Positions 3,398 to 58,019 are shown, counted from the first letter of the stretch. The stretch: DNA of 64,000 nucleotides from Halieaceae bacterium (GCA_965237855.1 CBDEGK010000004.1:179305-243304), one strand, 5' to 3'. Numbers and translations are program-made. The notes: generated by a model from the letters alone, not told the origin.

Positions 3398-4801
3398 ATG
3401 CAACAATTATCCGGTATGGATGCCATGTTCGTGCACCAGGAAACTGCTCGAACGCCCATGCACATCACCGCCGTGATGATCTACGACCCCTCGACGGCGC
3501 CGGACAAGCCGGTTCGATTCAAGCAGATTCTGCAGACTTTCGGCTATAATTTACACAAATCACCGCTTTTTCGTCGCAAGTTGGCAACCGTTCCCTGGAA
3601 CCTGGACAATCCCTATTGGCTCGAAGACGGTAAATTCGACCTCGAATACCACGTCCGCCACGTGTCCCTGCCGAAACCGGGCGATTGGCGCCAGTTCTGT
3701 ATTCTCATGGCACGCCTACATGCCCACGGCCTGGATATGAAGCGACCGCTGTGGGAGGCCTACGTGATAGGGGGGCTGAGTAATGTTAAAGATCTGCCCG
3801 ACGACGCCTTCGCCGTTCTGCTCAAGATACATCACTCCGCCATTGACGGGGTTTCAGCCGCGGAAACCATTAACGCCATCCATACCCTGGAACCGGTGTT
3901 GGCCAGGCCGCCGCGCGCTGATGACTGGGCCGGCGAAGCGGAACCCAATGCCACCAGCCTTGCTGCGCGCGGCTATTTTCGCAATATGACCAAACCGGTG
4001 AAGCTGATAGGACAGGTCAGCAAACTGGTGGGGCAATTGAGCCAACAGGTTGACAAGGACAAAGCCGCGCGCACCGACAGTCGCACGCGAACACGTTTCA
4101 ATGCGCGTATTTCGCCGCATCGGGTCTGTGATGGCGTGCGCCTGGATCTGGCCGAGGTCAAGGCGATCAAGAACGCCGTGCCCAATGTCACCGTCAATGA
4201 CGTGGTTATCGCCATCGTCGGTGGTGCCATGCGCCAATATCTGCAGGCCAAGGATGAACTGCCCTTTGACTCACTGGGCGCAGCGGCGCCGATCAGCGTA
4301 CGCTCGGAAGACGAGATGGGCTCTGGCGGCAACCAGATCAGCGCCATGACCCTGAGCATGCGCACCGATATAGAAAATCCCCTGGAGCGGCTTGAGGCCA
4401 TTCACGAACACGCCATGGAGTCGAAGGCTTACGCCAATGCCATGGGCGCCCACACCCTCAGCAGCATCGCCGACAACATTTCAGCGCGTATGGGCAGTCT
4501 CGGCGTCCGCGCTATCACCGCGGCAACACTATTGCAGGAGATGCCACTACCGGCGCACACCGTGGTATCCAATGTGCCCGGACCGCAACAACCCCTGTAT
4601 ATGAGTGGTGCACGCCTGCACAGCGTCATCGGCCTGGGGCCGCTGCTGGACAATATGGGCCTGTTTCACGGCGTCATGAGCATCGCCGGGCTACTCACCA
4701 TCACTTTCTGTGCCTGTCGCGAGATGATGCCCGATCCCGAATTCTATACCCAGTGCCTGCAGGATTCCTTCGACGAGTTGAAGGTCCTTACCATCCAGTA
4801 A
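3398..4801 (+). CDS. wax ester synthase/diacylglycerol acyltransferase (WS/DGAT) family protein
   Basis: 467 aa with the HHSAIDG (HHxxxDG) catalytic motif. AGGAGG lies about 8 nt upstream of the ATG. Confidence 0.85.
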
Positions 4802-6826: not shown

Positions 6827-6960
6827 GCTTCTCTATCCGTCAACTGTGTTTTTGTACTGAACTGGCGTGGGTTGGAACTGATCCCCGCCCCCAATATTAT
6901 TATGCTGGGATGCTGAAAAAGCGGCGCCCATTTTCTATGAAAAGGCACCTTATCGCAACT

Positions 6961-8406
<1,446 letters not shown>

Positions 8407-43239: not shown

Positions 43240-45462
43240 TCACTCCAAATAAACTGCATCAGGTCTGGGTTTCAACGGCGGCGGCGAGCGATGCCCCCAC
43301 ACCTCGGCATCGGACAAGAGATGCCCCCATCCGGTAGCCTCGTATTGGTAAGTCGTAGTCTCCTCGATCGCGCCATCACCGTTCTCGTCCCGATCATACC
43401 GCGTTAGATTGCCATCGAGATCGTATTGCCAGGTCTCAAGGTGCTCTGGCCTGCCATTGTCATCGCTGTCCTCTTCCGCGCGCGTCAGCTTGCCATTTTC
43501 ATTGTACTGCCAACTGATTATCTCGCCGTCGCCAGGCTCGCCGGTCGCAAAGCGGGTCAAATTGCCATTGGCATCATAGTGGTAGCTACGGTTGCCGCCG
43601 GATTGGTAGAAATTGCCGCGAATCCAAAAATGCTCAGTGGCTGTGATTTCGTGCAGCATCACGGTGCCATTGGCGTGGTATTGCCACAACTCGAGGCGGT
43701 AGTTGGGTAGCACTCCCTCGCAGATGTCGGCACACTCATAGGGTGCCATGTTCTCATAGCGTGTCACGTTGCTGTTGGCGTCATATTGCCAGATCTCTAC
43801 TTCCGCCAGCTCGCCAGCGACGGCGTCGACTCGATCTGTGCGGGTCACTTGGCCGTTGGCGTCATACTGATAATGCCAGGTCTCGATTTCATCCGCCACG
43901 CCGTCGGCGTCATTTTCATATCGTGTCGGTTTGCCCTCTGCATCGTAGTGCCAACTCTCGGCACGCTCTGGTGAGCCGTCGGCATCACGATCCAATTCCT
44001 GCCGGGTCACATTGTCATCGCGGTCATACTGCCAACTTTCAATTTGATGGCGCGTGCTGCCAGAAATTTGCTCGGCGTGTGACTCAAACCGGGTAATGTT
44101 ACCGCTGGCGTCGTACTGCTCGCTCTCGAATCCCTCTCTGCCGTCGGCTTCATGCCACGCTTGCCGATACTGCGTCAAGCTGCCGTCAACGTCGTATTGC
44201 CAAGTCTCGAATCCCCCACTTGGCGCATCATCCAAGTCGTCGTCAACCTGAACGTGCGTCGGATTGCCGTCCGCGTTGTACTGGTAACGGATAATTCGTT
44301 CCGGCGTGCCGTTGGCATCTCCATCAAATTCATGCCGGGTTTCATTGCCGTTGGCGTCGTAATGCCGGGTCTGGACTTCGTCATACATGTTAAACAGCAA
44401 AGCGTCACGCTCATACCGGGTCACATTGCCGTCGGCGTCGTACTGCCAACTTTCGAAGCCTAGCGTCTCACTCTCATGGCGGGTCACGTTACCGTTGGCA
44501 TCGTATTGCCAGTGCTCGGTGAATGCCGAATCGTCAGCCCCGTCTCCGTTCGTCCGCACGGTTACCCCAACCGTTTGGGGATCAATTGCCAACGCCGCGT
44601 AGAGGTGTTCAAGCGCGACTGCAGGCTTGACGATCCCATGTGCCTCATTGAATCGCTGCTCCCTGTTCGCTTGCCCCAGCGCGTGGCGCAGCCTTGGCTC
44701 CATCTGAAATGACCGCCAATGTTGGCTCAGATTGAGGCTCACCCCCCGGAAAAGAGCGGCTACGTCGGGGCTGATCTGTATGCCGTTGTCTGGATCGGCG
44801 TCGTGGTCCAGGCTGTGCAACAAAACCGCCAGGTTAATAACGGCGCGGAATGGGTCATCCTCGCCCTCGAGCGCCCAGGTGATATCTATTCCGGTAACCA
44901 CTGCCGAGCCAGCCAGGTCAAACGGCGTCACCTCTGCTCGACCCACAACCTCACCGAGCACGGTATCGCCAATCAGAAAACGAACCGTTTCACCTTGTGC
45001 GTACTCAAAGCTGCCATCGAGATTCGTAAACCCCTGATAGCTTGGACTCTCGTAAGCCACGCCCGCCGCCGGACCACCTCCCAGATAGCCGACTACTCCG
45101 GTAATGGGCTCAAACACCGCTGTGCTCGGGGGAATCTCATAATCTGGATAGGTCTCATCCATCCAGGAAACCCAATCTTCTTCTGCGTCAATGCGGCAGT
45201 ACTGAAAATCGGACTGTTGCGAGCACGGCCCTTCCCAGCGGACGAAGCGCCAGCCGGGCCTGGGTTCCGCTTTGTAGTTGACGAAGTAGTTGCCGCTGAC
45301 CTCATTCTCGCTGCAAGCGGTGTCCTGCGTGAGAAATTGTTCGAGAGTACAGCCATGGCCGGAGTTGTTGGCGTCGACAATATCACCCTCTCCCACTACT
45401 GCCAGGGGGTGTTTACAGGCTTGGAGTATGAGGATGACTGCCAGAGTCGTGAAAATCCTCAT
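43240..45462 (-). CDS. YD/RHS-repeat lipoprotein without a recognisable toxin or Rhs-core domain
   Basis: 740 aa. The lipobox is AVILILQAC. At least 12 repeats of the type (E)xWQYDANGNVTRxE fill the C-terminal 430 aa. Confidence 0.75.
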   Translation of the reverse strand: MRIFTTLAVILILQACKHPLAVVGEGDIVDANNSGHGCTLEQFLTQDTACSENEVSGNYFVNYKAEPRPGWRFVRWEGPCSQQSDFQYCRIDAEEDWVSWMDETYPDYEIPPSTAVFEPITGVVGYLGGGPAAGVAYESPSYQGFTNLDGSFEYAQGETVRFLIGDTVLGEVVGRAEVTPFDLAGSAVVTGIDITWALEGEDDPFRAVINLAVLLHSLDHDADPDNGIQISPDVAALFRGVSLNLSQHWRSFQMEPRLRHALGQANREQRFNEAHGIVKPAVALEHLYAALAIDPQTVGVTVRTNGDGADDSAFTEHWQYDANGNVTRHESETLGFESWQYDADGNVTRYERDALLFNMYDEVQTRHYDANGNETRHEFDGDANGTPERIIRYQYNADGNPTHVQVDDDLDDAPSGGFETWQYDVDGSLTQYRQAWHEADGREGFESEQYDASGNITRFESHAEQISGSTRHQIESWQYDRDDNVTRQELDRDADGSPERAESWHYDAEGKPTRYENDADGVADEIETWHYQYDANGQVTRTDRVDAVAGELAEVEIWQYDANSNVTRYENMAPYECADICEGVLPNYRLELWQYHANGTVMLHEITATEHFWIRGNFYQSGGNRSYHYDANGNLTRFATGEPGDGEIISWQYNENGKLTRAEEDSDDNGRPEHLETWQYDLDGNLTRYDRDENGDGAIEETTTYQYEATGWGHLLSDAEVWGHRSPPPLKPRPDAVYLE

Positions 45463-45674
45463 TTCTCTGCCTCCTGACGCTGGAAGGCGACCCAGCCTAG
45501 CGCGTTGGCGAAAAATGGTAGTAGTAATATTATAGTCCAGATTGGCTGGATGAGCCGCGCAAGCTGGTCTTCTGCTACCCAGCGAATGGCAGGCCGACCG
45601 TCAGTTTTTCGGTCACAGCGGACCCCGTTCAATCCCGGTTTACCCAGATTCAACTCCGGAACGATGCAAGTCCC

Positions 45675-45707
45675 CTATACTCCGAAAGCGGACATTCGCG
45701 GTCTGCT
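45675..45707 (+). repeat. bipartite array repeat, copy 1 (3' half only; leftmost element of the array)
   Basis: CTATACTCCGAAAGCGGACATTCGCGGTCTGCT matches the 3'-half consensus. No 5' half was seen upstream. Confidence 0.8.
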
Positions 45708-45804
45708 GTACTAAGAGAAATTTTCGATTCAAAATTACCGACGGAGTATGCGTCCATGAGACGTGATATAACATGTCGCTTAGACTTTGAATAGGCTGTT
45801 AGGC
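45708..45804 (+). repeat. conserved ~97-bp leader module, copy M1, ending in the core site GTTAGGC
   Basis: Alignable with the copies at 51093, 54177 and 57446. It contains the palindrome GACGTGATATAACATGTC (45760-45777) and ends GGCTG|TTAGGC. Confidence 0.8.
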
Positions 45805-45823
45805 ATCTCATGAGGAACATATT

Positions 45824-46330
45824 ATGGAGATGAATTGGGAAGCGACAGGAGCAATCGCGGAGCTCCTTGCTGCTCTGGGGGTTATAGCAACACTGGTATA
45901 TTTGGCGGTCCAGATTAAGCAACAAGGTACCTCACAGATTGAGAGTAGCCACAAAGAAGCAAGGGGCCAGTCCTACCAGAGCCTGCTGATGGGCTTACAG
46001 AATCACTTCGGTGCGGTCGCGTTAGACGAAACACTTTCGGATATATTTCGAAGGGGTCTGGCTAGCTACGAATCTCTAAATTCTCTAGAACAATTTCGAT
46101 TTAATTGGGTGCTAGGCGGCTATCTGGTAACCAATGAGAACGCTTTCTACCAGAAGAAAGATGGCATATTGTCCGAAGACCGCTGGGACCATCTGTTCAG
46201 AGCATTGAAGTGGTATTATTTATCCCCTGGTGTCAGAGAGTGGTGGCTGAGCTACCCAAAAGATACCCTCCATCCGGAGTTTGCTGCCCTAATTGAAGAG
46301 TATATTCGAACCATCGAAGAAGCCGCCTAA
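45824..46330 (+). CDS. cassette ORF, family A (N-terminal TM anchor, ~150-170 aa), paralogue 1
   Basis: 168 aa. MEMNWEATGAIAELLAALGVIATLVYLAVQIKQ aligns with the N-termini of the ORFs at 47916 and 57561. The stop codon lies inside the attC R'' box. Confidence 0.75.
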   Translation: MEMNWEATGAIAELLAALGVIATLVYLAVQIKQQGTSQIESSHKEARGQSYQSLLMGLQNHFGAVALDETLSDIFRRGLASYESLNSLEQFRFNWVLGGYLVTNENAFYQKKDGILSEDRWDHLFRALKWYYLSPGVREWWLSYPKDTLHPEFAALIEEYIRTIEEAA

Positions 46331-46414
46331 CAAGTCAGTCAAATTCGCGCCTATCGGCGCCGGACAGCCTAATCGCGGCTTCGCCGCAGGCTACCGTTTA
46401 CTGAGGCGTTACGT
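46325..46414 (+). other. attC recombination site (X1)
   Basis: The site reads GCCTAAC-aag-TCAGTCAAA...TTTACTGA-ggc-GTTACGT. L''/L' pair with one extrahelical C. R'' is the exact complement of the cassette start GTTAGGC at 45798. Confidence 0.75.
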
Positions 46415-46426
46415 CCGCTTCTAGGT

Positions 46427-47653
46427 GTGGATTCAACCGGTCGACGCAACACACGCGTTAAATCGATCAGCTGGTGTTTCGTAGTCTAGCGTTTTTCTCG
46501 GTCTTTCGTTCAGCCGTCTTGCGACGCGATTTAGCTCTGCCTGTGAGTGGACAGACAAATCAGTACCCTTCGGGAAGTACTGCCTCAGTAGTCGGTTGGT
46601 GTTCTCGTTTGAGCCTCGTTGCCAAGGACTCCTCGGATCGCAGAAGTACACTTGAATATCTGTCGCCAGCGTAAATTTCTTGTGGTCACATAACTCCGAA
46701 CCACGATCCCAAGTGAGCGACTTATAGAGTTCGTTGGGCAACTTGCGGGCTTGCTTGATCAAAGCCCGGATCACCGTTTCTGTATTCTTGTTCTCAACCT
46801 TGGCCAGCATCACATACCGGGTCTGGCGTTCCACTAGGGTGGCAATGTACGTATAGTTTGGGCCGGCGATGAGATCCCCCTCCCAGTGACCGGGAACTGC
46901 CCGGTCCTCCACCGAGGCTGGTCGCTCACTGATCGGCACTGCATCCACAATCTTCCCCAATCCCTGCCCTTTCAAGCTGGCATGCTTTGAACGACGCATC
47001 ACACGCTGGGTTCTCAGGCACGCCAAGAGTTCCTTCTTCAGAACGCCGCGGGCCTGTATATACAGACTCTTGTAGATAGTTTCGTGTGACACGTGGTAGC
47101 ACTCATTTGTCTGGTATTGCCGCTTTAACCAGCCTGCAATTTGTTGAGGTGACCACTCAGTTTGTAACTTCTTAGTGATCACCCGCACCAGGCGAGGCTG
47201 GCCTGCCAACTTGCAAACCTTGGGTCGCAAGGCTCGCCGCCAAGCCGCTTCCTCGGCCGAGCTGGCTCGATAGGAAGCATACCCTCCATTGCGCCGAATT
47301 TCCCGGCTCACCGTAGACGGAGATCGGCCAAGTTCAGATGCAATGGCACGCATGGATTGCTGCTTCGCCAGACCCCTGGAGATGATCTCTCGTTCCGCGA
47401 GGGTCAGCGCCAGGGCGGAGCGCGTTCTATCAATGGGGCGGATGCCACCAGTCCTCGAAATAATTCCCTGAACCGAACTGTGGCTTCGGTCAAAAAGGCG
47501 AGCTATTGCATGGAGAGAATCGCCTTTTTCCCAGCGATCCCACATCAGGGCCTTCTGCGTATTTGAGTAATATATCCGAGGCTTTCGTTTCATCAGCAAC
47601 ACTCCTTCTCTCTGCTAAGAGATTAAAGTGTTGCGTCGACCGGTTGAATCCAC
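46427..47653 (-). mobile_element. IS30-family insertion sequence (1227 bp)
   Basis: Perfect 26-bp terminal inverted repeats GTGGATTCAACCGGTCGACGCAACAC lie at 46427-46452 and 47628-47653. AGGT flanks both ends. There is a single transposase ORF. Confidence 0.9.
46433..47596 (-). CDS. IS30 family transposase
   Basis: About 387 aa from MKRKPRIYYSNTQKALMWDRWEKG, with an HTH N-terminus and a DDE region carrying HWEGDLI. Confidence 0.9.
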   Translation of the reverse strand: MMKRKPRIYYSNTQKALMWDRWEKGDSLHAIARLFDRSHSSVQGIISRTGGIRPIDRTRSALALTLAEREIISRGLAKQQSMRAIASELGRSPSTVSREIRRNGGYASYRASSAEEAAWRRALRPKVCKLAGQPRLVRVITKKLQTEWSPQQIAGWLKRQYQTNECYHVSHETIYKSLYIQARGVLKKELLACLRTQRVMRRSKHASLKGQGLGKIVDAVPISERPASVEDRAVPGHWEGDLIAGPNYTYIATLVERQTRYVMLAKVENKNTETVIRALIKQARKLPNELYKSLTWDRGSELCDHKKFTLATDIQVYFCDPRSPWQRGSNENTNRLLRQYFPKGTDLSVHSQAELNRVARRLNERPRKTLDYETPADRFNACVASTG

Positions 47654-47915
47654 AGGTCATAGCAGACGTAGCACCCTCCTGGTTGGATCTGGTTCTCCTT
47701 GCGAACGAGTAAGGTCCGCTATACTCCGAAAGCGGACGTTCCCCCGCCCGATTATCTACCTTGCCTAGGTATAGAGTGCCCCAAACATCCGCAAACAACT
47801 CAAAGCGGAACTAAGGGCAGATGGTGCAACTAGGGCTGCATTGCTAGGATAGCGGAACAGGGGAGCTAAGGAGCTCCGAGCCTTTTTATTGTTTTGCAAC
47901 TAGTAAGGAATTCAT

Positions 47916-48377
47916 ATGAATGCGCTTGATCTGTCAGGCTGGGCTGCGTTAGCCGAGATAATTGCCTCCGTCGGCGTTGTTTTCTCTCTCCTCCTTGTCG
48001 CGTATAGCATCAAGCGAAATACCAGTGAAATGGAAACATCCAATTCCAATTTCTTGTATCAGCTTGATGCAGAAATTGGTGGTGACCTATCTCGAGACAT
48101 TGGATTGGCGACACTGACTCTCAAAGTGAGACAAAACGATGCTCTGTCGGACGTAGAGAAAATTCAATACTTGGCGTTCCAGGCCCGCTATCTGGGTATA
48201 TTGGAGATTGCCTGGACCCAGTACAAAAGTGGAGCTTTGGCCTCCATTGATTGGCGAGACTGGGATAAGTACCTGTCTGATTATGTGAAGGAAGGTCTCC
48301 CCAAGGAATGGTGGATTGAGATTAGGCCATTATATAAACCTGAGTTTGCCGAACACGTAGACAGTAAATTTGAGTAG
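47916..48377 (+). CDS. cassette ORF, family A, paralogue 2
   Basis: 153 aa. The TM anchor is WAALAEIIASVGVVFSLLLVAYSIKRN. The C-terminal W/P pattern is shared with paralogues 1 and 3. Confidence 0.7.
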   Translation: MNALDLSGWAALAEIIASVGVVFSLLLVAYSIKRNTSEMETSNSNFLYQLDAEIGGDLSRDIGLATLTLKVRQNDALSDVEKIQYLAFQARYLGILEIAWTQYKSGALASIDWRDWDKYLSDYVKEGLPKEWWIEIRPLYKPEFAEHVDSKFE

Positions 48378-48472
48378 GATTTCGATGTTTTTCAAGCGAA
48401 TCAGGTTATCGATCATTCTTCGTCTGTATAGATGGAGTCAGCGCCCAGCAATGACCGCCAACAACTCACAGC

Positions 48473-48560
48473 GAACGTCCGCTCCTAGGTCAAAGCAGAC
48501 CTAAAGCCTCGTAGCGGAGCTAGGGCTGCTACACTCCGAAAGCGGACATTCCGAGGCAGT
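48473..48560 (+). repeat. bipartite array repeat, copy 3
   Basis: GAACGTCCGCTCCTAGGTCAAAGCAGACC, a 23-nt spacer, then GCTGCTACACTCCGAAAGCGGACATTCCGAGGCAGT. Confidence 0.85.
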
Positions 48561-48826
48561 TACTCGGAGATGCAGCTATCACCTCCATGTGGACTCTGGC
48601 GCTCGAAGTCGTAGGGCCTGCTTTTGGCACATAGCGTGCACTGAGTTTGAGCTAGGATTCTCAAAGAGCATGCATTTAGTGGAGTACTTTGTAGTCGTTA
48701 GTGTTTGTGTATACTCAAGGCATGTTGCTATGCACCCACCTATCAACGTTATTGAGTCGTAAACCAAAAGCCTTACCGATGGTGTACAAGTTATATATCA
48801 CCGAGACATCCAATAAGCTGTTATAA
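48561..48826 (+). repeat. diverged, longer leader-module-like sequence ending in the core GTTATAA
   Basis: The 3' part, TTATTGAGTCGTAAACC...GAGACATCCAATAAGCTG|TTATAA, is alignable with the ends of the other leader modules. Confidence 0.45.
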
Positions 48827-48850
48827 AGCATTAGCAATCCAAACTTATAT

Positions 48851-48926
<76 letters not shown>

Positions 48927-48988
48927 TTACTAACCAGTCCAACTAGATATTGTCAGTTTGCAATTTACAAAGCTAAGCACTTCACAAT

Positions 48989-49351
48989 ATGGGCAACACA
49001 AATTGTGCTGGCAAAAGGAAAAAACGCTTTAAACAGGCTAGGAGTAATTGCACATGCCATATAACAAGTTCGGGCACAAACGCGCTTCGCGCTGGACTCG
49101 TGGCTTCGCCACTTGCCTTCTTTGTGACGGGGGCGCAATGGTTCACAGCGATCGTTCTCAGTAATCAGCTGATACAAGGTGCCTCGCCCTTCCACTGGTT
49201 GGAGATAATTCTGTACGTAACGATTGGTGTTTTTTTAGTAGGGATTGCGACGGACAATGCGCGAGTGCATGCTGTGTTGGCTATTTGGCCGCCACTGTTC
49301 TTTGTGTTGCTCATAGTTCAGATGTCGCAGCCAGAGCAGCTCTTTCGGTAG
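48989..49351 (+). CDS. hypothetical small membrane protein (start uncertain)
   Basis: 120-aa ORF whose distal 80 aa are hydrophobic (2-3 TM helices). It lies between the tRNA and an attC. No similarity was recognised. Confidence 0.3.
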   Translation: MGNTNCAGKRKKRFKQARSNCTCHITSSGTNALRAGLVASPLAFFVTGAQWFTAIVLSNQLIQGASPFHWLEIILYVTIGVFLVGIATDNARVHAVLAIWPPLFFVLLIVQMSQPEQLFR

Positions 49352-49402
49352 CTGGTGCCGACATAGGGTTTTCAGGAACGAAAGGAGCGAACACATGGAA
49401 AC

Positions 49403-49462
49403 TCATAACAAGCGCAAGCAAGCAGACTTGCGTGCTGCCAGCTGCTGTTTCGGACGTTATGT
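49403..49462 (+). other. attC recombination site (X4)
   Basis: The site reads TCATAAC-aag-CGCAAGCAAGCAG...CTGCTGTTTCG-gac-GTTATGT. The L arms pair with two extrahelical bases. R'' is complementary in 6 of 7 positions to the core GTTATAA at 48820. Confidence 0.6.
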
Positions 49463-49557
49463 CCGCTCCTAGGTCAAAGCGGGCATAGCGTCCCCCAGGT
49501 TAGAAGCGTTCATCTCGCAGGCGAACAAGGTCAGCTCTACTCCGAGAGCAGACTTTC
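49457..49557 (+). repeat. bipartite array repeat, copy 4
   Basis: TTATGTCCGCTCCTAGGTCAAAGCGGGCA, a 48-nt spacer, then GCTCTACTCCGAGAGCAGACTTTC. The 5' half begins at the X4 recombination point. Confidence 0.75.
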
Positions 49558-49702
49558 CCTCATTGTATTTTTGGTGTCTGAAGCGACATACGGGAATCGC
49601 TCGTGAAATTCTGCAATCCGTTCGTCAACAAACAGGTCGGTAGAAATATACCGTAGTGGTCTGTCCCCAGTTATCCCACAAATTGTCTGAATTATCGAAT
49701 TA

Positions 49703-50968
49703 ATGTATGGTGAGAATGCATCTAAATCTTGGTTTCCAATGACCAATTTTCATCAGCCGCGTGTACTGCTTGGGAATGCCGCCGTCGCTCTAATTGCGAT
49801 TGCGTGGCTCTTATCATTTCTAATGCAAATTGATGACATGGTCTCAGATCGGCACATGTCGATGGGGTTCTACGTTTCCCTGTCTCAAGATGGCACCCTC
49901 TTCGTGGATAAATTCCGGTCCGAAAACGACAGCGTCGAGGGGCTACAGCAAAACGACATTATCGTTGGCATTGGTGCTAACAAGTTCGAAGATACGGGAG
50001 GCATCCCGCGATCTCAGAGTGCGTTTCGCTCAGCCTTCCTGAATGCCCACGGCCAGGTCCTCATCGAGAGAGGTGGCCAGATAATACCCATCGCCGCACA
50101 AGTGAAACCTAAGCCGCTCGGCTGGCTGTCTCTGGCACTGAATTGTGTTCTTTGCGCACTCGGTCTTCTCGTCGCATTTTTTGGCAAACCGAACCACGGC
50201 ACACGTAGACCAGCGATGATTCTGCTGATCCTTGCAATCGTAGGGATTGATCCCGTAAACGGCCCCACCGGCGATACCGTCATGCTAAGTTTTATTATCT
50301 ATAGTGTCGCCTGTGGCCTGTACTGGCCTATTTCCATCAACTGGCTGCAACACCTGGCTAAACCTGACGTTGAGTATCGTCGACTGCTGCTGCCGTGGCT
50401 GTTTTCAGTCTTCGGCATCGTTGTTTTCTCATTGCACTGGGGTGCCCCAATACCACCCCCGTTCGCCGACCATGCGTTTACTATCTTGTACTGGGCGGGC
50501 ATGGTGTGTTGGTTCGGAACTGTGTTTCTCATTCACTCACGGCTAGAAACAGCGACGCGTCAACAACTTAACTGGGTGTTAGCCGGAGCTGCGTTCTCAG
50601 TTACAGGCGGATTCGCGGCCTTCGCTGCTGGTTGGATCTTGACAAACGATGACCTCAAGTTCCTTGGTTTATTCACTAAAGGATTTTTTGCTACTGGATT
50701 TGCAATGGCAATCCTGAAATCCGATTTCGGACACATTGACCGTGTTGTAAGCGTCTCATTGACCTATGCAATCCTCGTCGCGCTGTTCGCCCTATCTCTT
50801 GAGTTTTTTGTCGAGCCGTTGGCGGTCTTCTCAGCGACCTACATCGGCTTGCCAGAAGAAACAGGTAAAACGATACTCATTGTCATTGTCGCTTTAGGTA
50901 CGCCGGGACTAAAGAAAATGATTCAACCCGGGATCAAAAATTACTTCCTCGGTGTTTCATCCGCATAG
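49703..50968 (+). CDS. polytopic membrane protein with an N-terminal PDZ-like domain
   Basis: 421 aa. It has one TM helix, a PDZ-like segment (GLQQNDIIVGIGANKF...IERGGQIIPI), then about 7 TM helices. The ATG at 49739 is an alternative start. Confidence 0.6.
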   Translation: MYGENASKSWFPMTNFHQPRVLLGNAAVALIAIAWLLSFLMQIDDMVSDRHMSMGFYVSLSQDGTLFVDKFRSENDSVEGLQQNDIIVGIGANKFEDTGGIPRSQSAFRSAFLNAHGQVLIERGGQIIPIAAQVKPKPLGWLSLALNCVLCALGLLVAFFGKPNHGTRRPAMILLILAIVGIDPVNGPTGDTVMLSFIIYSVACGLYWPISINWLQHLAKPDVEYRRLLLPWLFSVFGIVVFSLHWGAPIPPPFADHAFTILYWAGMVCWFGTVFLIHSRLETATRQQLNWVLAGAAFSVTGGFAAFAAGWILTNDDLKFLGLFTKGFFATGFAMAILKSDFGHIDRVVSVSLTYAILVALFALSLEFFVEPLAVFSATYIGLPEETGKTILIVIVALGTPGLKKMIQPGIKNYFLGVSSA

Positions 50969-51007
50969 TAAAGATAATTGGAGACAGACCCCAGTTTTAG
51001 ATATTTT

Positions 51008-51092
51008 GAGTGACTGCTTTTAGGTCCTACCGACAAACCTCTCAACTGAATAAGGTCGGCTATACTCCGAAAGCAGACGTTCGATGTCTACT
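51008..51092 (+). repeat. bipartite array repeat, copy 5 (5' half degenerate)
   Basis: GAGTGACTGCTTTTAGGTCCTACCGAC, a spacer, then GCTATACTCCGAAAGCAGACGTTCGATGTCTACT. Confidence 0.7.
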
Positions 51093-51190
51093 ATGCTGAG
51101 AGAAATTATTGACTCAAAACCACTGCCGGAGAAATGTGTCCAGGAGACGTGATATAACACGTCACTTGGACAATGAATAAGCTGTTAGGA
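51093..51190 (+). repeat. conserved leader module, copy M5, ending in the core GTTAGGA
   Basis: Nearly identical to the copy at 54177. The palindrome GACGTGATATAACACGTC lies at 51146-51163. Confidence 0.85.
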
Positions 51191-51198
51191 GGCACGAC

Positions 51199-51684
51199 AT
51201 CGAAGAAGCCGAGACATTTTCGCTACTGGCAGAGGTAGCCGTCGCGCTCGCTGGGTTCACTGGTGTTGCAGCTGCGTTCGGCGGTCGGTCTCGTGAGTAT
51301 TCCGCAGCCGACCGAGTCCGTCTTGCAGCAATTTTTCTTTCCAGCGCGTGTGTCCTCGCAATTAGCCTTTGCGTGCTTACGCTCAAAAGCATCCTATTGG
51401 ATGCTGAAACGGTTTACGCCTACAGTGGTCTCTTGGGAGCTTTCTTTTTGGTTTGGTTCCTCTATCCACTTACACCTAGAACTTACGCGCTGGCCAGGGA
51501 TGCTGATACCTCCACCTCTCTGTCAATCGTCACACTGGGAACGCTTCAGAACGTTATAAGCCTGGTCTTATTACTTGCTAACTTTATTGTTTGGAGATCG
51601 GCCGGGCCGTTACTTGCAGCGGCGTCGATCCAGATTATGTGGTCGCTGTTGCTTTTCGCTCGTCTTTTAGTCCGACCCAACTAG
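51199..51684 (+). CDS. cassette ORF, family B (polytopic membrane), paralogue 1, with no canonical start codon (ATC aligned to the paralogue's ATG)
   Basis: The frame is open from 51181. (I)EEAETFSLLAEVAVALAGFTGVAAAF aligns with METTDLLLVGAEVSVAFAGFAGIIATF of the 51959 ORF. AGGAGG lies 6 nt upstream of the ATC. The first canonical start (GTG 51373) would delete the conserved N-terminus. Confidence 0.45.
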   Translation: MEEAETFSLLAEVAVALAGFTGVAAAFGGRSREYSAADRVRLAAIFLSSACVLAISLCVLTLKSILLDAETVYAYSGLLGAFFLVWFLYPLTPRTYALARDADTSTSLSIVTLGTLQNVISLVLLLANFIVWRSAGPLLAAASIQIMWSLLLFARLLVRPN

Positions 51685-51695
51685 GCTATGCGCTC

Positions 51696-51770
51696 TCCTA
51701 ATAAGTCAATCAACTACGCGCCTCTGGCGCCGGACTGGCTTACAGCCAGCCGGTTATTGAGGCGTTACTG
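51696..51770 (+). other. attC recombination site (X2)
   Basis: The site reads TCCTAAT-aag-TCAATCAA...TTATTGA-ggc-GTTACTG. It has the same architecture and extrahelical C as X1. R'' is complementary in 6 of 7 positions to the cassette start GTTAGGA at 51184. Confidence 0.7.
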
Positions 51771-51857
51771 AACGACCGCTCCTAGGTCAAAGCAGACGTA
51801 GAGAGCCAGTTGGCAGGATGGCCGCTATACTCCGTGAGCAGCCATTCGCCGTCTGTT
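51770..51857 (+). repeat. bipartite array repeat, copy 6
   Basis: GAACGACCGCTCCTAGGTCAAAGCAGACG, a 25-nt spacer, then GCTATACTCCGTGAGCAGCCATTCGCCGTCTGTT. Confidence 0.8.
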
Positions 51858-51958
51858 ATGCATAATGGCAGTAAACTACTCTGAAGGGTCATTCGCCTGA
51901 CTGTCCCACCCTCTCCATTTCGGTCTATCCTTGTATCAATCTAATATCTAGGAGATCG

Positions 51959-52504
51959 ATGATGGAGACGACTGACTTACTATTAGTTGGGGCTGAAGTG
52001 AGTGTGGCGTTTGCCGGGTTTGCAGGCATTATCGCAACATTTCAATTTAGGGATGATAGAGAAATCAAACGTGGTGACGTAGTAGGACTGACAATGATTG
52101 TCCAAATTTCCTTAGGGTGTGCGTTGCTCACTGTTATCCCTATAGTTCTCTCAATCATTGGAATCGACGAGGGGACATTGTGGGCCGCTTGCAGCGCCTT
52201 TGGAGCCAGTTGGGGCACTTACAACATGTACGTTGTAAATAGAAATATGAGGGGAGCCGGCAGGAAAACTTCTCAGCGAATACTATTCGGGAGTTTTCAA
52301 GGAGCGTTTGGCCTCCTCGTTATCTCATTGATTCTCAATGCAGTAGATATTTACTTTCATAGAGAGCCTGGCCCATATCTAGTGGGGCTTGTTCTATGTT
52401 TTAGCTTGGTTAGTTACATGTTCGCGCGTCTACTTCTTCACCCTTTGTGGCGAGCCGTTCAGAGCCAGGAAGCCGCAAATATCAGCGGAGCCACGCCAAG
52501 TTGA
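51959..52504 (+). CDS. cassette ORF, family B (polytopic membrane), paralogue 2
   Basis: 181 aa, about 5 TM helices. The GGAG motif lies upstream of the ATG. Confidence 0.7.
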   Translation: MMETTDLLLVGAEVSVAFAGFAGIIATFQFRDDREIKRGDVVGLTMIVQISLGCALLTVIPIVLSIIGIDEGTLWAACSAFGASWGTYNMYVVNRNMRGAGRKTSQRILFGSFQGAFGLLVISLILNAVDIYFHREPGPYLVGLVLCFSLVSYMFARLLLHPLWRAVQSQEAANISGATPS

Positions 52505-52531
52505 GCGTCCGCTTTTAGATCATAGCGGACC
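52505..52531 (+). repeat. bipartite array repeat, copy 7 (5' half only; perfect hairpin)
   Basis: GCGTCCGCTTTTAGATCATAGCGGACC forms the stem GTCCGCT/AGCGGAC. It starts directly after the family B stop codon. Confidence 0.7.
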
Positions 52532-52607
52532 TCTAATTTACAGGGGATGGAATTGTTCTATAGTTAGTCTTATTGGAATCCAACATTGAAACTGGAGCGT
52601 TGTAATT

Positions 52608-53921
52608 GTGATGATACTTAAGAAAACTCTAACTATTGCCGCTGTTGTTGTCACTGGTGCCACCCTATATATGTGGGGTCATACAGACGCGCGCTATGGT
52701 AGAACTGTGTTTAAGTCTGCAGAAGCTGCAAGCACGCCAATGATTTCTGCAGTCAAGGCGCGGTCGCGCGATGTTTATTCTCCGAATAGTGAGGACCTTG
52801 CATCGGATGAGATGCGTGTTATCGCATGTGGTACCGGTATGCCGACCACCCGCGCCGCGCAAGCTGCTGCCTGCTTTCTCGTCGAGCTTGGAAATGGCGA
52901 CAAGTTCATCTTCGATGTTGGATCCGGTTCGGCCGAACGAATTTCGTCCTTGCAGATCCCTTACGACTTCCTCGACAAGATCTTCATTGGACACCTGCAC
53001 GCCGATCATTTCGGTTCACTGGGAGAGATATTCATCGGGGGCGCACTCATGGGGCGGCAGAAACCGCTACAAGTCTGGGGCCCGAACGGCCCCTCCCCCG
53101 AGCTAGGTACCGCATATGCCGTTCAGAAAATGAAGGAAATGTACACATGGGACCTCGCCGGGCGCGTCGGTATTGTCGACTTTCGGGGTTACACGATTGA
53201 GGTCAACGAATTCGATTACAAAGCTGAAAACGCTGTAATCTATGAGAAGAACGGGGTGACAATCCGCTCGTTTCCCGCGATCCATTCACTCGACGGACCC
53301 GTTAGCTTCAGTCTGGAATGGAACGAGCTGAAATTCGTCTTCGGCTCGGACTCTTATCCCAACAAATGGTTCGTGAAATATGCCAAAGACGCGGATCTTG
53401 CTGTACACGAGTGTTTCGTCGCTGTTCCCGATCTGATCAAGAAGATGAGGTTCACGCCGGAGCAGGCCTTGCTCGTTGGTACCCAGATACACACCGCCCC
53501 GGAGGCTTTTGGCAAGCTAATGGCGGAAATCCAGCCGCGTATGGCCGTGGCGTATCATTTCTTCAAGGATTTTGACACAACTGCGCAAGTGAACGACCGC
53601 ATCCGCACTACTTATGACGGGCCACTGAGCCTTGCTGAAGATTTCATGGTCTGGAACATCACCAAGGATGACATAACTGTCAGGATGGCAGTTGTGGAAG
53701 AACACACGTGGGCGCCGCCTCTGACAGGTGCCCCGCAGCCTCCTGGGGGAGATAAAGACAGAGAGCAATTCAGTAAGGATGCGGGTATTCCCATTGGTGC
53801 GCTATCCTACTCAGATTTTGTCATCGAAGGTCGGTGGAGCGAAGTCGACGAGGCGCTCCGGGGAGTCTACAGGGAGGCGAGCGAGGCGGTTGGCAGGACG
53901 TTTGAATATCCAACGAAGTAG
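52608..53921 (+). CDS. MBL-fold metallo-hydrolase (RNase Z/beta-lactamase superfamily) with an N-terminal signal/anchor
   Basis: 437 aa with the HLHADH motif and a hydrophobic N-terminus LTIAAVVVTGATLYMW. The start is GTG 52608 or ATG 52611. Confidence 0.75.
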   Translation: MMILKKTLTIAAVVVTGATLYMWGHTDARYGRTVFKSAEAASTPMISAVKARSRDVYSPNSEDLASDEMRVIACGTGMPTTRAAQAAACFLVELGNGDKFIFDVGSGSAERISSLQIPYDFLDKIFIGHLHADHFGSLGEIFIGGALMGRQKPLQVWGPNGPSPELGTAYAVQKMKEMYTWDLAGRVGIVDFRGYTIEVNEFDYKAENAVIYEKNGVTIRSFPAIHSLDGPVSFSLEWNELKFVFGSDSYPNKWFVKYAKDADLAVHECFVAVPDLIKKMRFTPEQALLVGTQIHTAPEAFGKLMAEIQPRMAVAYHFFKDFDTTAQVNDRIRTTYDGPLSLAEDFMVWNITKDDITVRMAVVEEHTWAPPLTGAPQPPGGDKDREQFSKDAGIPIGALSYSDFVIEGRWSEVDEALRGVYREASEAVGRTFEYPTK

Positions 53922-54008
53922 AGTAATCGCACTCTGATAAGCCGTGTCAGCTGGGCGCCATGCCACGGCCTCACCACGCGGCAGGTGCCAGTACAATCAA
54001 GCGTTGCT

Positions 54009-54176
54009 GAGGGTCCGCTTTTGGCACAAAAGGGCCCGATTCAGCCCTGAATTTTCCACTCCGCCAACGGCCGGAATTAGGTCATAGCAGACATAACGCA
54101 CTCTAGGCTCCAACCGATGATTCTCGCAGCGGAGCAAAGACCGCTATGCTCCGAAAGCGGATGTTCACGGTCTGCT
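54009..54176 (+). repeat. bipartite array repeat, copy 8, with a ~54-bp insertion in the 5'-half loop
   Basis: GAGGGTCCGCTTTT [54023-54076 insert] TTAGGTCATAGCAGAC, a spacer, then GCTATGCTCCGAAAGCGGATGTTCACGGTCTGCT (54143-54176). Confidence 0.75.
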
Positions 54177-54274
54177 ATGTTGAGAGAAACTCTTGACTCA
54201 AAACCACTGCCGGAGAAATGTGTCCATGAGACGTGATATAACACGTCACTTAGACATTGAATAGGCTGTTATGT
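54177..54274 (+). repeat. conserved leader module, copy M8, ending in the core GTTATGT
   Basis: The palindrome GACGTGATATAACACGTC lies at 54230-54247. The module ends GGCTG|TTATGT. Confidence 0.85.
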
Positions 54275-54334
54275 GTTTCAGGAACGGTCGTTCGACCCTA
54301 AGCGCTCGTATATTTATCTCACAAGGACTCGTTG

Positions 54335-55114
54335 ATGGCGCTTCCAAACACCATCGATTCATTGTGTCGGGACTTATCTGACATAGGACTCGGGTCCGGA
54401 ACGACAGTAATGGTTCATTCCTCGCTGGGTAAAGTTGGCTGGACGGTTGGTGGACCGGTATCAGTGATTCGTGCTCTTCTAGAAGTCGTCGGACCAGAGG
54501 GAACATTGGTCATGCCGGCGGCGTCTCCGAACGTATCTGACCCAAGCGGATGGAATGACAAACGGGTGAAGGCTGACTGGCATGGAACGATACGAGAGCA
54601 CCTTCCCGTGTTCGATCCGCTAACAACACCAACGACGATGGGCGTGATTCCAGAGGCATTTAGGGCGCTTCCCGGAACACTAAGGAGTAACCACCCAATG
54701 GTGTCGGTTTGCGCCAACGGCCCACTTGCAAGGCAAATCACGAAAGAACATTCGATGGAATTTTGCGAGGGTAAGGGGACGCCATTTGAGAAACTCTACC
54801 AGCTAGACGCGCATACGCTATTGCTAGGTGTAGGCTTCAACCGATGCACGTCTTTGCACTATGCAGAGTCGTTGGTGTCTACGCGACGAACGACAGTACA
54901 TAGATTCCCCCTGATGGAGAACGATGACCGAATCTGGGTGGAAGTCCCAGACATGGCAAGCGACGACGGTATTCATTTTCCAGTCGTTGGTGAACAGTTT
55001 GCTGCAACTGGTGCGGTTTGCGCTGGCCGTGTGGGGGAGGCAGATTCGATGCTATTTGCAACTCGACAGCTAGTCGATTTTGCCGAATTGTATTTCGCCC
55101 GAGTGCTCAGTTGA
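54335..55114 (+). CDS. aminoglycoside N(3)-acetyltransferase family protein, AAC(3)
   Basis: 259 aa. LGSGTTVMVHSSLGKVGWTVGGPVSVIRALLEVVGPEGTLVMPA and GFNRCTSLHYAES are typical of the AAC(3)/Antibiotic_NAT fold. Confidence 0.8.
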   Translation: MALPNTIDSLCRDLSDIGLGSGTTVMVHSSLGKVGWTVGGPVSVIRALLEVVGPEGTLVMPAASPNVSDPSGWNDKRVKADWHGTIREHLPVFDPLTTPTTMGVIPEAFRALPGTLRSNHPMVSVCANGPLARQITKEHSMEFCEGKGTPFEKLYQLDAHTLLLGVGFNRCTSLHYAESLVSTRRTTVHRFPLMENDDRIWVEVPDMASDDGIHFPVVGEQFAATGAVCAGRVGEADSMLFATRQLVDFAELYFARVLS

Positions 55115-55195
55115 CGGATGATATCTACAATCCGTAGCCGTATCTACTTGTGGCCGTATACAGAATTGGCATTTTTTTTCATGAACCTAATCAAC

Positions 55196-55285
55196 ACATA
55201 ACAAGGCAATGAATCGGACATCTTAAAGCATGCTTCCACTCCGCTACAGCAAGCATTGAAAATGCCGGTTATCGCGGCGTTATGC
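55196..55285 (+). other. attC recombination site (X3)
   Basis: The site reads ACATAAC-aag-GCAATGAATCGG...CCGGTTATCGC-ggc-GTTATGC. R'' is the exact complement of the cassette start GTTATGT at 54268. Confidence 0.65.
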
Positions 55286-55294
55286 GGTTGTGGC

Positions 55295-55869
55295 GAGCGT
55301 CCGCTCCTAGGTCATAGCTTCCCCGACGCTATCTAAAATAACATTTGTCTCGCGTAGGAAATCATTAGCACCAGCTGTACGCCAAACAATCCGCCACGCA
55401 GAATAACCATCGGCAACGCCGTAGATGTCATATGCACAACCGATTGACCCACCCTTGCGTACAACACAAACATCACCGTACCTTCCAGAATGGCCATTTG
55501 GTCAGACAGGCCTGCCGCTGCGACCAACGCCGTAAATACTGGCAGGGTTTCCAGACAATTGAGATGGGCTCGTGTAACGCGCCGGCCAAACCCAGGTAAA
55601 TCCTCACCATCAGGTGAGAACTGGTTGAGCGCAATTTTCGAACCTCCAAAAGAATTGGCGAATCTATTGACCACCATGATCAGGGTAACGACCAGTGTCC
55701 AAGCTGCAAAACCCGCTAATGCCGTAATTGCTTCGTTCATTATTGCTCTCCGCTTACTTTCAGCTATAGGGCAAGTATTGTTTACCTGATCTACTCCCAT
55801 GAAGCAACCAGCCACGGCAGATACATCATCTGGCGGCTATACTCCGGAAGCGGCCCTTCGGGGTCTGCT
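55295..55869 (+). repeat. bipartite array repeat, copy 9, whose two halves enclose the inverted MAPEG gene
   Basis: The 5' half GAGCGTCCGCTCCTAGGTCATAGCTTCC lies at 55295-55322. The 3' half GCTATACTCCGGAAGCGGCCCTTCGGGGTCTGCT lies at 55836-55869. Confidence 0.7.
55333..55740 (-). CDS. MAPEG family membrane protein
   Basis: 135 aa from ATG 55740 (MNEAITALAGFAAWTLVVTLIMVV...), 4 TM helices, with RAHLNCLETLPVF typical of MAPEG. It is the only minus-strand cassette ORF. Confidence 0.65.
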   Translation of the reverse strand: MNEAITALAGFAAWTLVVTLIMVVNRFANSFGGSKIALNQFSPDGEDLPGFGRRVTRAHLNCLETLPVFTALVAAAGLSDQMAILEGTVMFVLYARVGQSVVHMTSTALPMVILRGGLFGVQLVLMISYARQMLF

Positions 55870-55934
55870 TTGCTGAAGGGCAACTATTCACCTGCAGCAT
55901 GCGGCGAAGCGGCGCTGCTTAACGGGGTCACGTT

Positions 55935-56231
55935 ATGTTCAAGAAACGCAATCTGAGAAGACTCATCGACTCTTTCGGGACCGCGTTCTCTTCTGAACGC
56001 GTCGCTGATCTACAGTCGTATGTTAACCATGGTGAGTATGGATTGGCGATCGAGATATTGAGTGAAATGATCTATGAAGACGATATCGCAGTCGATGCAG
56101 AACAGGAGAAGGCTATTCTCAAGAGTTCTACCGACTTTGGCGTTGACCACGATTACCACGCGTTCATTGGCAGGAGACCGCCGTATCCAGACCTGAGAAC
56201 TCCTGAGCAGATTGCCGACGCTAGGAAATAG
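55935..56231 (+). CDS. small cytoplasmic protein, MafI-like immunity-protein pattern (tentative)
   Basis: 98 aa. YVNHGEYGLAIEILSEMIYEDDIAV resembles a polymorphic-toxin immunity family as I recall it. The ATG sits inside a GTTATGT core (55932-55938). Confidence 0.4.
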   Translation: MFKKRNLRRLIDSFGTAFSSERVADLQSYVNHGEYGLAIEILSEMIYEDDIAVDAEQEKAILKSSTDFGVDHDYHAFIGRRPPYPDLRTPEQIADARK

Positions 56232-56261
56232 CCTATTTTTTGGCAGGGAGAGTAGCCTTGG

Positions 56262-56361
56262 GAACGTCCGCTCCTAGGTCAAAGCAGACCTAGAGCCATA
56301 CACCAACCTCGCAGCCTGGCTAGGTCGGCTATACTCCGAAAGCGGACGTTCAAGGTCTGCT
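56262..56361 (+). repeat. bipartite array repeat, copy 10 (closest to consensus)
   Basis: GAACGTCCGCTCCTAGGTCAAAGCAGACC, a 37-nt spacer, then GCTATACTCCGAAAGCGGACGTTCAAGGTCTGCT. Confidence 0.9.
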
Positions 56362-56448
56362 ATGCTAAATGACAGACAGCGACTCGCTGGAAGCTTCAGC
56401 TCAGCTTACGGGTCATATTGGGTGGAATGACAGCATCGGGGTGGAAAT

Positions 56449-57195
56449 ATGGACGACGCACTATGTAGTACGGAAGATCACGATACATACGCTGTTGTGA
56501 GATTTCACCCTCGAAACAGTTTCTATACGGCAGATACCGAGGCGGTCTCTGAAATGTGGCAGTTATATGACGAGCTACAGATTGAGAGCAAGAAGGTCGT
56601 CCTGTTTAGGTCGCCGAGGGATTATTACGCTCCAAGGATGCTCGATGATTTCTGGAAAACCGCCAAGGCGGCGCCATCGATTCTGCAGTATGACGGACGC
56701 CGCATACCGCAGGTGGTTGCGTACGCCGATATTTCAATCAAGCGCTATCTCGCGTTCATGCATGCCATTCCTGCGATGACCATAAGCTCCATAGAAGGCG
56801 AAATGGATTTCGATTTGCTGGGTTTGTTTCTCACGGCGAGCTACAGGATATGTAGCAGTGATACGGTCTTTGTTAATCGAACCCTCCAGCGTCAACTTCC
56901 CCCAGGATGTGCCACTCCTTGGTTCCTGAGTAACTTACTGGGACCGGTCGTTGCGAAAAAACTGTATCTATCCAACGAGCGGCTAAACGCGGAAGAGGCC
57001 CTGGAGCTGGGTATCGTTGATCGCATAACGGAACCAGATGCATTGGAACGGGAGAGTCTTGAGGTCGTGCAGCAATTTTCCCAAGTTGAGGGAACTGCGC
57101 TCGCGTCACTTGTGCAAGCAATCACCTCATCCAATCACGATCTGGATACTTATCTATCTCAGGCGGGTGCGGGATTCGATCACCTGATTTCATAG
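56449..57195 (+). CDS. crotonase-fold (enoyl-CoA hydratase/isomerase-like) protein with degenerate oxyanion-hole motifs
   Basis: 248 aa. The overall pattern is ...SSIEGEMDFDLLGLFLTASYRICS...LSNERLNAEEALELGIVDRI..., and the usual Gly-rich loops are replaced. Confidence 0.5.
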   Translation: MDDALCSTEDHDTYAVVRFHPRNSFYTADTEAVSEMWQLYDELQIESKKVVLFRSPRDYYAPRMLDDFWKTAKAAPSILQYDGRRIPQVVAYADISIKRYLAFMHAIPAMTISSIEGEMDFDLLGLFLTASYRICSSDTVFVNRTLQRQLPPGCATPWFLSNLLGPVVAKKLYLSNERLNAEEALELGIVDRITEPDALERESLEVVQQFSQVEGTALASLVQAITSSNHDLDTYLSQAGAGFDHLIS

Positions 57196-57359
57196 TCGCC
57201 GGGGAGCCATAAAAATTGGAGCCCTAGTACTCGGGGCGGTTAATGCTCGTAAGGTTTTCTGATTGACAGGAGGTATCTCCCGGCGCTTCTCGCGCCAATT
57301 TTAAGGTGTCCATCAAACCGGAGCAAAACGACGAAGCTCCCATTCCTGATGTCCAATGC

Positions 57360-57445
57360 GAACGTCCGGTTCTAGGTCAAAGCAGACCCTGGGCTTGTGC
57401 TCGCAGTTGCAGCTATACTCCGAAAACGGACGTTCCCAGTCTGCT
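57360..57445 (+). repeat. bipartite array repeat, copy 11
   Basis: GAACGTCCGGTTCTAGGTCAAAGCAGACC, a 23-nt spacer, then GCTATACTCCGAAAACGGACGTTCCCAGTCTGCT. Confidence 0.85.
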
Positions 57446-57541
57446 ATGCTGAGGAAAATTATCGACTCATAACTACTGTCGGAGATATATCATTGTGCCG
57501 CGTTACAACACGGTGCTTTGCCACTGAATAAGTTGTTATGT
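57446..57541 (+). repeat. leader module, copy M11 (more diverged), ending in the core GTTATGT
   Basis: ATGCTGAGGAAAATTATCGACTCATAACTACTG...GCCACTGAATAAGTTG|TTATGT. The central palindrome is replaced by CCGCGTTACAACACGG. Confidence 0.7.
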
Positions 57542-57560: not shown

Positions 57561-58019
57561 ATGAACTGGGACGCAATAGGTGCTATTGGCGAGATATTAG
57601 GTGCTACCGCAGTCCTAATCACCTTGGTATATCTCGCAACTCAAGTGAGACGGTCCAATGAACTTGCCTATTTTAACGGGGCCAAGGAAATTATTAATCA
57701 GTTTAACGATCTCAATCGTCTAGTAGCTACAGATTCAACGCTCCGGCAGGTTTTGATGAAAACTGACGAGCTAACAGCCGAAGAGGTAGAGCAGATCTAC
57801 AACTTTGCAATGATGTTTTGTAATGTCTGGCTGTCAGCGCAGAGTGCCCATGACAATGGTCAGCTCGATACGAGTACATACCAAGCTTGTGCGCAGGATG
57901 TATCAATCGAACTTGCCCGATGGCCGAATTTTCGGCCCGCGCTGGAGCAATGGATTTCCAATTATCCACAACATGAAAGCCAGAAGATAATGCAACCTAT
58001 CGTGAGTGGAATGCATTGA
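57561..58019 (+). CDS. cassette ORF, family A, paralogue 3 (last ORF of the array)
   Basis: 152 aa starting MNWDAIGAIGEILGATAVLITLVYLATQVRR. AGGAG lies 8 nt upstream. Confidence 0.75.
   Translation: MNWDAIGAIGEILGATAVLITLVYLATQVRRSNELAYFNGAKEIINQFNDLNRLVATDSTLRQVLMKTDELTAEEVEQIYNFAMMFCNVWLSAQSAHDNGQLDTSTYQACAQDVSIELARWPNFRPALEQWISNYPQHESQKIMQPIVSGMH

Follow-up and report, generated by a model that had tools for sequence, protein, structure and literature searches.

The attC sites of integrons (59-base elements) stand at cassette junctions and end in G|TTRRRY, with crossover at the G (the bar marks this point); AAC and GTT form an inverted core, and between conserved ends lies a variable centre with an imperfect hairpin. 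A module of 96-98 nt that recurs in a 64,000-nt stretch of DNA from a Halieaceae bacterium (GCA_965237855.1 CBDEGK010000004.1:179305-243304; "the window", from whose first letter all positions are counted) has the same arrangement, with its AAC and GTT 75-77 nt apart. It lies in a cassette array that has a GC content of ~50%, against 57% in the flanks, and has core genes around it (sdh/suc, mdh and zipA among them). The module is unlike attC in having no assignable L″/L′, spacer or extrahelical bases, in an R″ box that reads TCAWAAC and not RYYYAAC, in that most copies do not close end to end, and in the unusual conservation of its copies, which are always fused to a block of hairpin repeats, the bipartite repeat (BR). 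An even chance is given here to the module being a non-canonical attC/attI-like docking site, attached to BR hairpins that resemble repetitive extragenic palindromes (REPs), in an integrase-less array.

Other described systems are comparable in part. With attI the module would share the role of a conserved site, upstream of G|TT, that receives cassettes behind it, possibly together with an upstream expression signal, but there are five copies in one array, no adjacent intI and no recognisable L box or direct repeats. The VCR-type (Vibrio cholerae repeat) attC sites of sedentary chromosomal integrons are likewise homogeneous, ~100 nt in length, and separate genes that are unrelated and for the most part unknown, in an island of low GC; different here are the BR core triplet, AGC/GCT, and the lack of circular-permutation complementarity at the BR boundaries. 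Gene-less cassettes with promoter activity are known from other integrons (PMC6557892; bioRxiv 10.1101/2023.11.21.568050). Like those of Vibrionaceae superintegrons and oral Treponema arrays, the module stretch is non-coding, recurrent and far from any common promoter (Pc); unlike them, it is not a cassette itself and no promoter consensus was found in it. The BR, for its part, recalls REP, BIME (bacterial interspersed mosaic element) and REPIN repeats, since its units are imperfect palindromes of 24 nt, mismatched at the centre, whose order is fixed while their orientation is mixed, and it is like a very abundant environmental hairpin family. However, it is restricted to the cassette array and not dispersed, its two hairpins are not mutually complementary as in REPINs, and no RAYT (REP-associated tyrosine transposase) was seen.

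Module copies and cassette boundaries

An earlier note on this DNA, made from the sequence, placed the module directly behind the 3′ half of the BR at four places, M1 (45708-45804), M5 (51093-51190), M8 (54177-54274) and M11 (57446-57541), and these coordinates were verified. On them, pairwise identity is 66-91%, and mean column identity in the four-copy alignment is 86%. A repeat finder assigns the module to families D6 and D7 (n=4, each adjoining the BR 3′ half), and a further family, D8, is the BR 3′ half and module duplicated as one piece (163 nt, 83% identity). The diverged copy, Mdiv, that had been suspected within 48561-48826 is also present, with an x2-like segment (GTTGCTATGC), a GTAAAC box, a degraded hairpin and the end CCAATAAGCTG|TTA. 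The 3′ block of the module, TGAATARGYTGTTA, has four exact matches and one with two mismatches, the latter at 48810-48823 in Mdiv (chance expectation 0.6). Between Mdiv and its BR are ~150 nt, which contain a relic hairpin loop, TTTGGCACAT, at 48618-48640. Modules and BR copies are on the + strand throughout and restricted to the array (45.6-57.5 kb). The 5′ end of the module continues the BR segment x2 (GTCTGCTATGCTGAGAG). There is no conserved small open reading frame (ORF) across the module among the copies; a leader peptide from the x2 ATG was rejected as a candidate, being absent in M1 and truncated in M11.

The 3′ end common to the modules is TGAATARGYTG|TTA, a shared terminus at the core site as the note had it, with CTG|TTA in five of five copies. 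Counted up to their terminal G, the modules are M1, 45708-45798; Mdiv, 48715-48820; M5, 51093-51184; M8, 54177-54268; and M11, 57446-57535. The terminal G is where integron crossover takes place. Evidence for this comes from the classical cassettes behind the modules, four of which end in a classical attC: X1 (to G 46408), d (to G 49456), X2 (to G 51764) and h (to G 55279). The R″ of these sites matches the first bases of its own cassette at 7, 6, 7 and 8 of 8 positions (cassettes C1, C3, C5 and C7 respectively), and the bases now following the attC at 5, 6, 3 and 7. Circularised with their own first bases, X1, X2 and h gain in stability and close end to end, which the short attC d fails to do. 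It is because the R″ of the downstream cassettes matches their own first bases, and because the folds of X1, X2 and h improve, that the last G of the module is taken as a genuine point of crossover.

A cassette, on the + strand, stands behind all five modules. C1 (45799-46408) carries a family A gene (45824-46330) and attC X1, with its R″ at 46324-46331; C3 (48821-49456) a tRNA-Gly(CCC) gene (48851-48926), a 120-aa ORF and attC d; C5 (51185-51764) a family B gene without a canonical start codon, and X2; and C7 (54269-55279) an AAC(3) gene (54332-55114) and h. The last cassette, C9 (57536-58019), has a family A″ gene (57561-58019), and no attC was recognised after it, where the array ends. (tRNA genes within integron cassettes are unusual. 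The family B gene, 51185-51684, is open from M5 onward with no ATG, GTG or TTG before 51373; from a paralog alignment its start seems to be ATC near 51200, or to be lost.)

The remaining units bounded by G|TT are those that end in a module, 46409-48820, 49457-51184, 51765-54268 and 55280-57535. With lengths of 1.7-2.5 kb and one to three genes each, they encode family A′ and B′ proteins, a 421-aa protein, MBL-fold and ECH-like proteins, a 98-aa ORF and a reversed MAPEG-family protein, and one of them holds an IS30-family element. Since these units have credible genes, the BR and module do not make up an ORF-less cassette of their own between two G|TT points, as had been proposed; what stands is the recurrence of the module, as a non-coding unit, exactly at cassette boundaries ahead of unrelated genes. 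Module-ending and classical units alternate strictly over nine positions, as 1 of 126 orderings would (the analysis's own count), and hairpin A of a BR lies within 5-20 nt after every classical attC.

The module as a proposed docking site

The earlier note had suggested that a matching R″ box be sought. Such a box, TCAWAAC, occurs 75-77 nt before the GTT core, a span within the attC length range of 57-141 nt. Its AAC is present in M5, M8, M11 and Mdiv, and is AAT in M1 (TTCAAAAT, near 45728-45735); the box is CTCAAAAC in M5 (51113-51120) and M8 (54197-54204), and CTCATAAC in M11 (57466-57473). Between the boxes lies a 36-nt imperfect hairpin, TGTCCA..GACGTG-ATATAA-CACGTC..TGGACA, at ~45752-45785 in M1, 51137-51172 in M5 and 54221-54256 in M8. 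The palindrome GACGTGATATAACACGTC within it is exactly where it had been reported, at 51146-51163 (M5) and 54230-54247 (M8), with a G-T variant at 45760-45777 (M1). In the four modules 82.9% of cells in the hairpin are paired, against 25-45% with slid partners, and two pairs are compensatory, both sides having changed in M11 (in an alignment of four sequences). The ends of the module are nearly invariant; the centre differs in M11 and Mdiv, yet still pairs. Invariant ends, a centre that varies while pairing, and a G|TT crossover at the 3′ end together fit the anatomy of a recombination site of the attC type. M11 is the sole copy to close R″/R′ end to end: on its bottom strand CATAAC closes with GTTATG, and the hairpin is continuous. 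Nothing complementary to CCGGAGAAA was found on the 3′ side of the module.

As a docking site, the module would form the 3′ end of a REP-like BR block, attC-like in form and used in the manner of attI. It would offer the core TGAATARGYTG|TTA and, ~70 nt upstream, the matching TCAWAAC box, with the central imperfect hairpin between them, and an integron integrase encoded elsewhere would have inserted one classical cassette behind each module copy, at the terminal G|TT. Binding and cleavage by that integrase, and the order of events, are presumed here, and the palindrome would be merely the apex of the hairpin. Unrelated genes after the module would be expected of cassettes inserted behind a docking site, as any recombination site precedes the next cassette.

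Several observations weigh against this interpretation. The R″ 7-mer of the module departs from RYYYAAC, with AAT in M1, and its match to R′ is 3-7 of 8. In M1, M5 and M8 folding is limited to the central hairpin (-8 to -11 kcal/mol); the range for three of the four classical attCs is -14 to -25 kcal/mol. No L″/L′ pairing, extrahelical bases or unpaired spacer could be assigned in the module, whose folds have a large internal loop, and the G-T wobbles of its hairpin show no bias toward the bottom strand. No integrase gene was seen among the window ORFs scanned. Neither an empty module nor a module copy outside the window turned up in genome, metagenome, viral, plasmid and related-locus scans, which limits every structural claim made here; a search of the window and of 16 related loci with a covariance model (R1) of the four modules likewise added no copy, and did not recover Mdiv. 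Finally, the R″ of the module agrees with the start of its own unit at 3, 5, 3 and 7 of 8 positions and with that of the neighbouring cassette at 4, 6, 6 and 7. As it fits its own unit no better than the next cassette, the module is read as a resident docking site rather than an attC belonging to the upstream genes alone. (Composite units as cassettes with the module as their own attC are thus unsupported by R″ matching.)

The bipartite repeat and its relatives

The BR is composed of two REP-like hairpins with a shared 7-bp stem, GTCCGCT/AGCGGAC, and 10-nt loops (GTCCGCT-N10-AGCGGAC). The unit of the 5′ half, hairpin A, is G(T/G)C(C/G)GCT-ATACTCCGAA-AGCGGAC and that of the 3′ half, hairpin B, is GTCCGCT-CCTAGGTCAA-AGCAGAC, a central mismatch being usual in both. 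All BR copies are within 45597-57450 on the + strand and none is in the other ~50 kb of the window. The boxes of the BR match those of the module, but with AGC/GCT for AAC/GTT (TCAWAGC...GCTATGC); in BR6 the two boxes pair as a perfect 10-bp stem. With IntI1, att sites with the GCT variant still recombine, 6- to 30-fold more weakly (PMC2811028), and on these grounds the BR may be an attenuated relative of the module. (The BR as an attC with crossover at GTTC was rejected; reading by eye gave no circular-permutation complementarity beyond GAAC/GTTC.)

BR0 (45597-45707) is at the array start, with a diverged hairpin A, hairpin B and x2 (GTCTGCT). At the left border of the array there is also a gene for a 740-aa RHS-repeat protein (43240-45462, - strand) with 81-nt periodic DNA repeats, and a possible array entry point, GCGCG|TTGGCG, at ~45500. 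BR1 (46409-47756) has a perfect hairpin B at 47714-47737 and, in the loop of its hairpin A, the IS30-family element (46427-47653), whose transposase (46433-47602, - strand) has HTH_38 and rve domains; the element has inverted ends of ~25 bp (GTGGATTCAACCGGTCGACGCAACAC) and AGGT on both sides. BR2 (48473-48566), with hairpins A and B, is upstream of Mdiv, and BR3 (49457-49572) begins at the crossover of attC d. BR4 (51025-51092), upstream of M5, has a degenerate hairpin A, hairpin B and x2. The x2 of BR5 (51770-51860) has GTT (GTCTGTTATGC), and additional to it is a second x2-like motif (CGGTCTATCCTTGTATCAATCTAATATCTAGGAGATCG), of a type met in the related locus L142 described below, at 51898-51958, right before the family B′ gene. 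A solitary hairpin of the BR family, GTCCGCT-TTTAGATCAT-AGCGGAC, is at 52503-52533. In BR6 (54065-54176), upstream of M8, CATAGCAGAC/GTCTGCTATG form a perfect 10-bp closing stem; its formation jointly with the BR pairing GAACGTCCGCT/AGCGGACGTTC was rejected, being a pseudoknot that is sterically implausible with a 3-nt linker. BR7 (55295-55874) is interrupted by the reversed MAPEG-family gene (55333-55815, - strand), which separates its hairpins A and B, the 3′ arm of hairpin A being truncated at AGC|TTCC. BR8 (56262-56366) is a canonical copy without a module, and BR9 (57360-57445) is upstream of M11.

A metagenome scan with the hairpin A (5′-half) pattern matched more than 120 soil contigs, mostly with a different clustered hairpin family that has the same stem; neither a BR 3′ half nor a module was present in these matches. 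The soil hairpins, ATGTCCGCT-loop-AGCGGACAT (L013-L132), occur in clusters of 2-4 with ~21-nt spacers and have three loops, TTTGGCACAA, TTCGGGGGTAA and TTTGACCCAA; no Rfam family matched in the four soil hairpin loci tested. On its minus strand hairpin B (TTCGGAGTAT) is similar to the second of these loops, x2 plus the module TTGACTCAA resembles the soil hairpin GTCTGCT-TTTGACCCAA-AGCGGAC, and the first loop survives as a relic before Mdiv. The BR has few true relatives. In two loci (L011 and L133) hairpin A and, behind it, GGTCTGCTATGCTGA stand between a family B gene and the family A gene after it; a third (L142), retrieved via a family B homolog named Haliea sp., has colinear units GCGGACGT-C-GGTCTATCCTTG|TTGGAG ahead of genes. 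Haliea sp., Halioglobus sp. and Halieaceae bacterium are among the source names of family B homologs, in line with Halieaceae as the likely host lineage. The 5′ regions of two TPR paralogs in L142, at 4100-4169 and 6900-6972, carry CGACTCAAAAG...GTGATATAG, motifs that recall TGACTCAAAAC and GTGATATAA of the module at a different spacing. Three viral scans and a plasmid BLAST gave no copies. A GTDB genome scan with the 3′-half pattern gave seven matches and no true BR, five of them being one orthologous Nannocystales gene start; in these (L001-L004 and L007, from Nannocystales/Myxococcota metagenome-assembled genomes) the 22-nt pattern matches CCGTATGCTCCGAAAACGGATGTTCAAG over the ATG start, probably by coincidence.

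The stem and 10-nt loops shared by hairpins A and B, the clustering of same-stem hairpins in the soil contigs, the resemblances of hairpin B and x2 to them, the relic at 48618-48640 and the related units in L011 and L142 favour another interpretation. In this the module would belong to a REP/BIME-like cluster, with gene conversion or an enzyme specific for hairpins (RAYT or IS200/IS605-like) as the means of its spread, and its GTT end would be a favoured attG-like secondary target and not a dedicated integron site. Duplication of the 3′ half and module as one piece points the same way. However, the 50 kb around the array is free of such repeats, none of the window ORFs that were tested looks like a Y1/HUH transposase, and the module is without counterpart in the soil clusters or L142. 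Five insertions of five at one base argue for a dedicated site, and the cluster interpretation is judged unlikely, though worth keeping in view.

Expression, decay and the origin of the site

The earlier note had favoured regulation: a mobile unit in which BR and module supply a promoter, an operator or a 5′ leader RNA to promoterless cassettes that have no Pc, a mini-platform of promoter plus insertion site. For this, gene-less promoter-active cassettes (PMC6557892; bioRxiv 10.1101/2023.11.21.568050) are a precedent, hairpin B and x2 lie 90-320 nt upstream of every array gene, with the hairpin B loop TATACT conserved, and the loop CTCCG of hairpin B has an invariant complement, CGGAG, in four of four modules. 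The palindrome centre TGATATAAC, present in three module copies, had been likened to an extended -10 element; it is without the -7 T, its TATAAC is lost in M11 and Mdiv, and TTGACT, at 51109 and 54193, does lie 38 nt upstream, as had been noted. A sigma-70 scan called no site in module or BR, and its total matches were not above those of shuffles. A promoter at TGATATAAC or at TATACT was therefore rejected, the latter having a -35 match of at most 3/6. (The strongest sigma-70-like site of the array, TTTACA-16-TATAGT, 10/12, is at 52537-52564, between the solitary hairpin, which it closely follows, and the MBL-fold gene at 52608.) As to a structured RNA, the tRNA was the sole Rfam match at gathering and relaxed thresholds, covariation is limited to two pairs in four sequences, and the RNAalifold covariation term is unfavourable (+0.88), with few copies to judge from. 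The strongest conservation in the module is at the recombination core, not at a loop or junction. With no test in its favour, a promoter or leader role appears unsupported rather than refuted, and the mobile expression unit as a whole is doubtful.

That the module is a decayed ordinary attC, formerly that of related cassettes, alike by recent duplication and without present function, would accord with its weak folding, its missing L boxes and the decay seen in Mdiv, but is improbable given a 14-nt core that is invariant though copies are 66-80% identical elsewhere, the compensatory changes in the hairpin, and unrelated genes upstream of the modules.

The docking-site interpretation may be taken one step further, on what is at present a slender chance. 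Two classes of hairpin site in the array would then share one set of boxes, one with GCT/AGC (the REP-like BR) that fixes genes in place and one with GTT/AAC (the module and the classical attCs) that is open to integrase, and the BR-module junction would be a living intermediate between REP-type hairpins and attC. If so, it bears on how attC sites, and hence cassettes, arise.

If the module is merely a decayed or odd attC, the finding is an ordinary one. If it does serve for docking, a cluster that lacks an integrase could contain several sites for internal insertion, each with lineage-specific hairpin repeats alongside, and the parsing of arrays by attC finders and the reading of cassette order would change. 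The boxes shared by BR and module, AGC/GCT in the one and AAC/GTT in the other, are a concrete and testable lead on the origin of attC.

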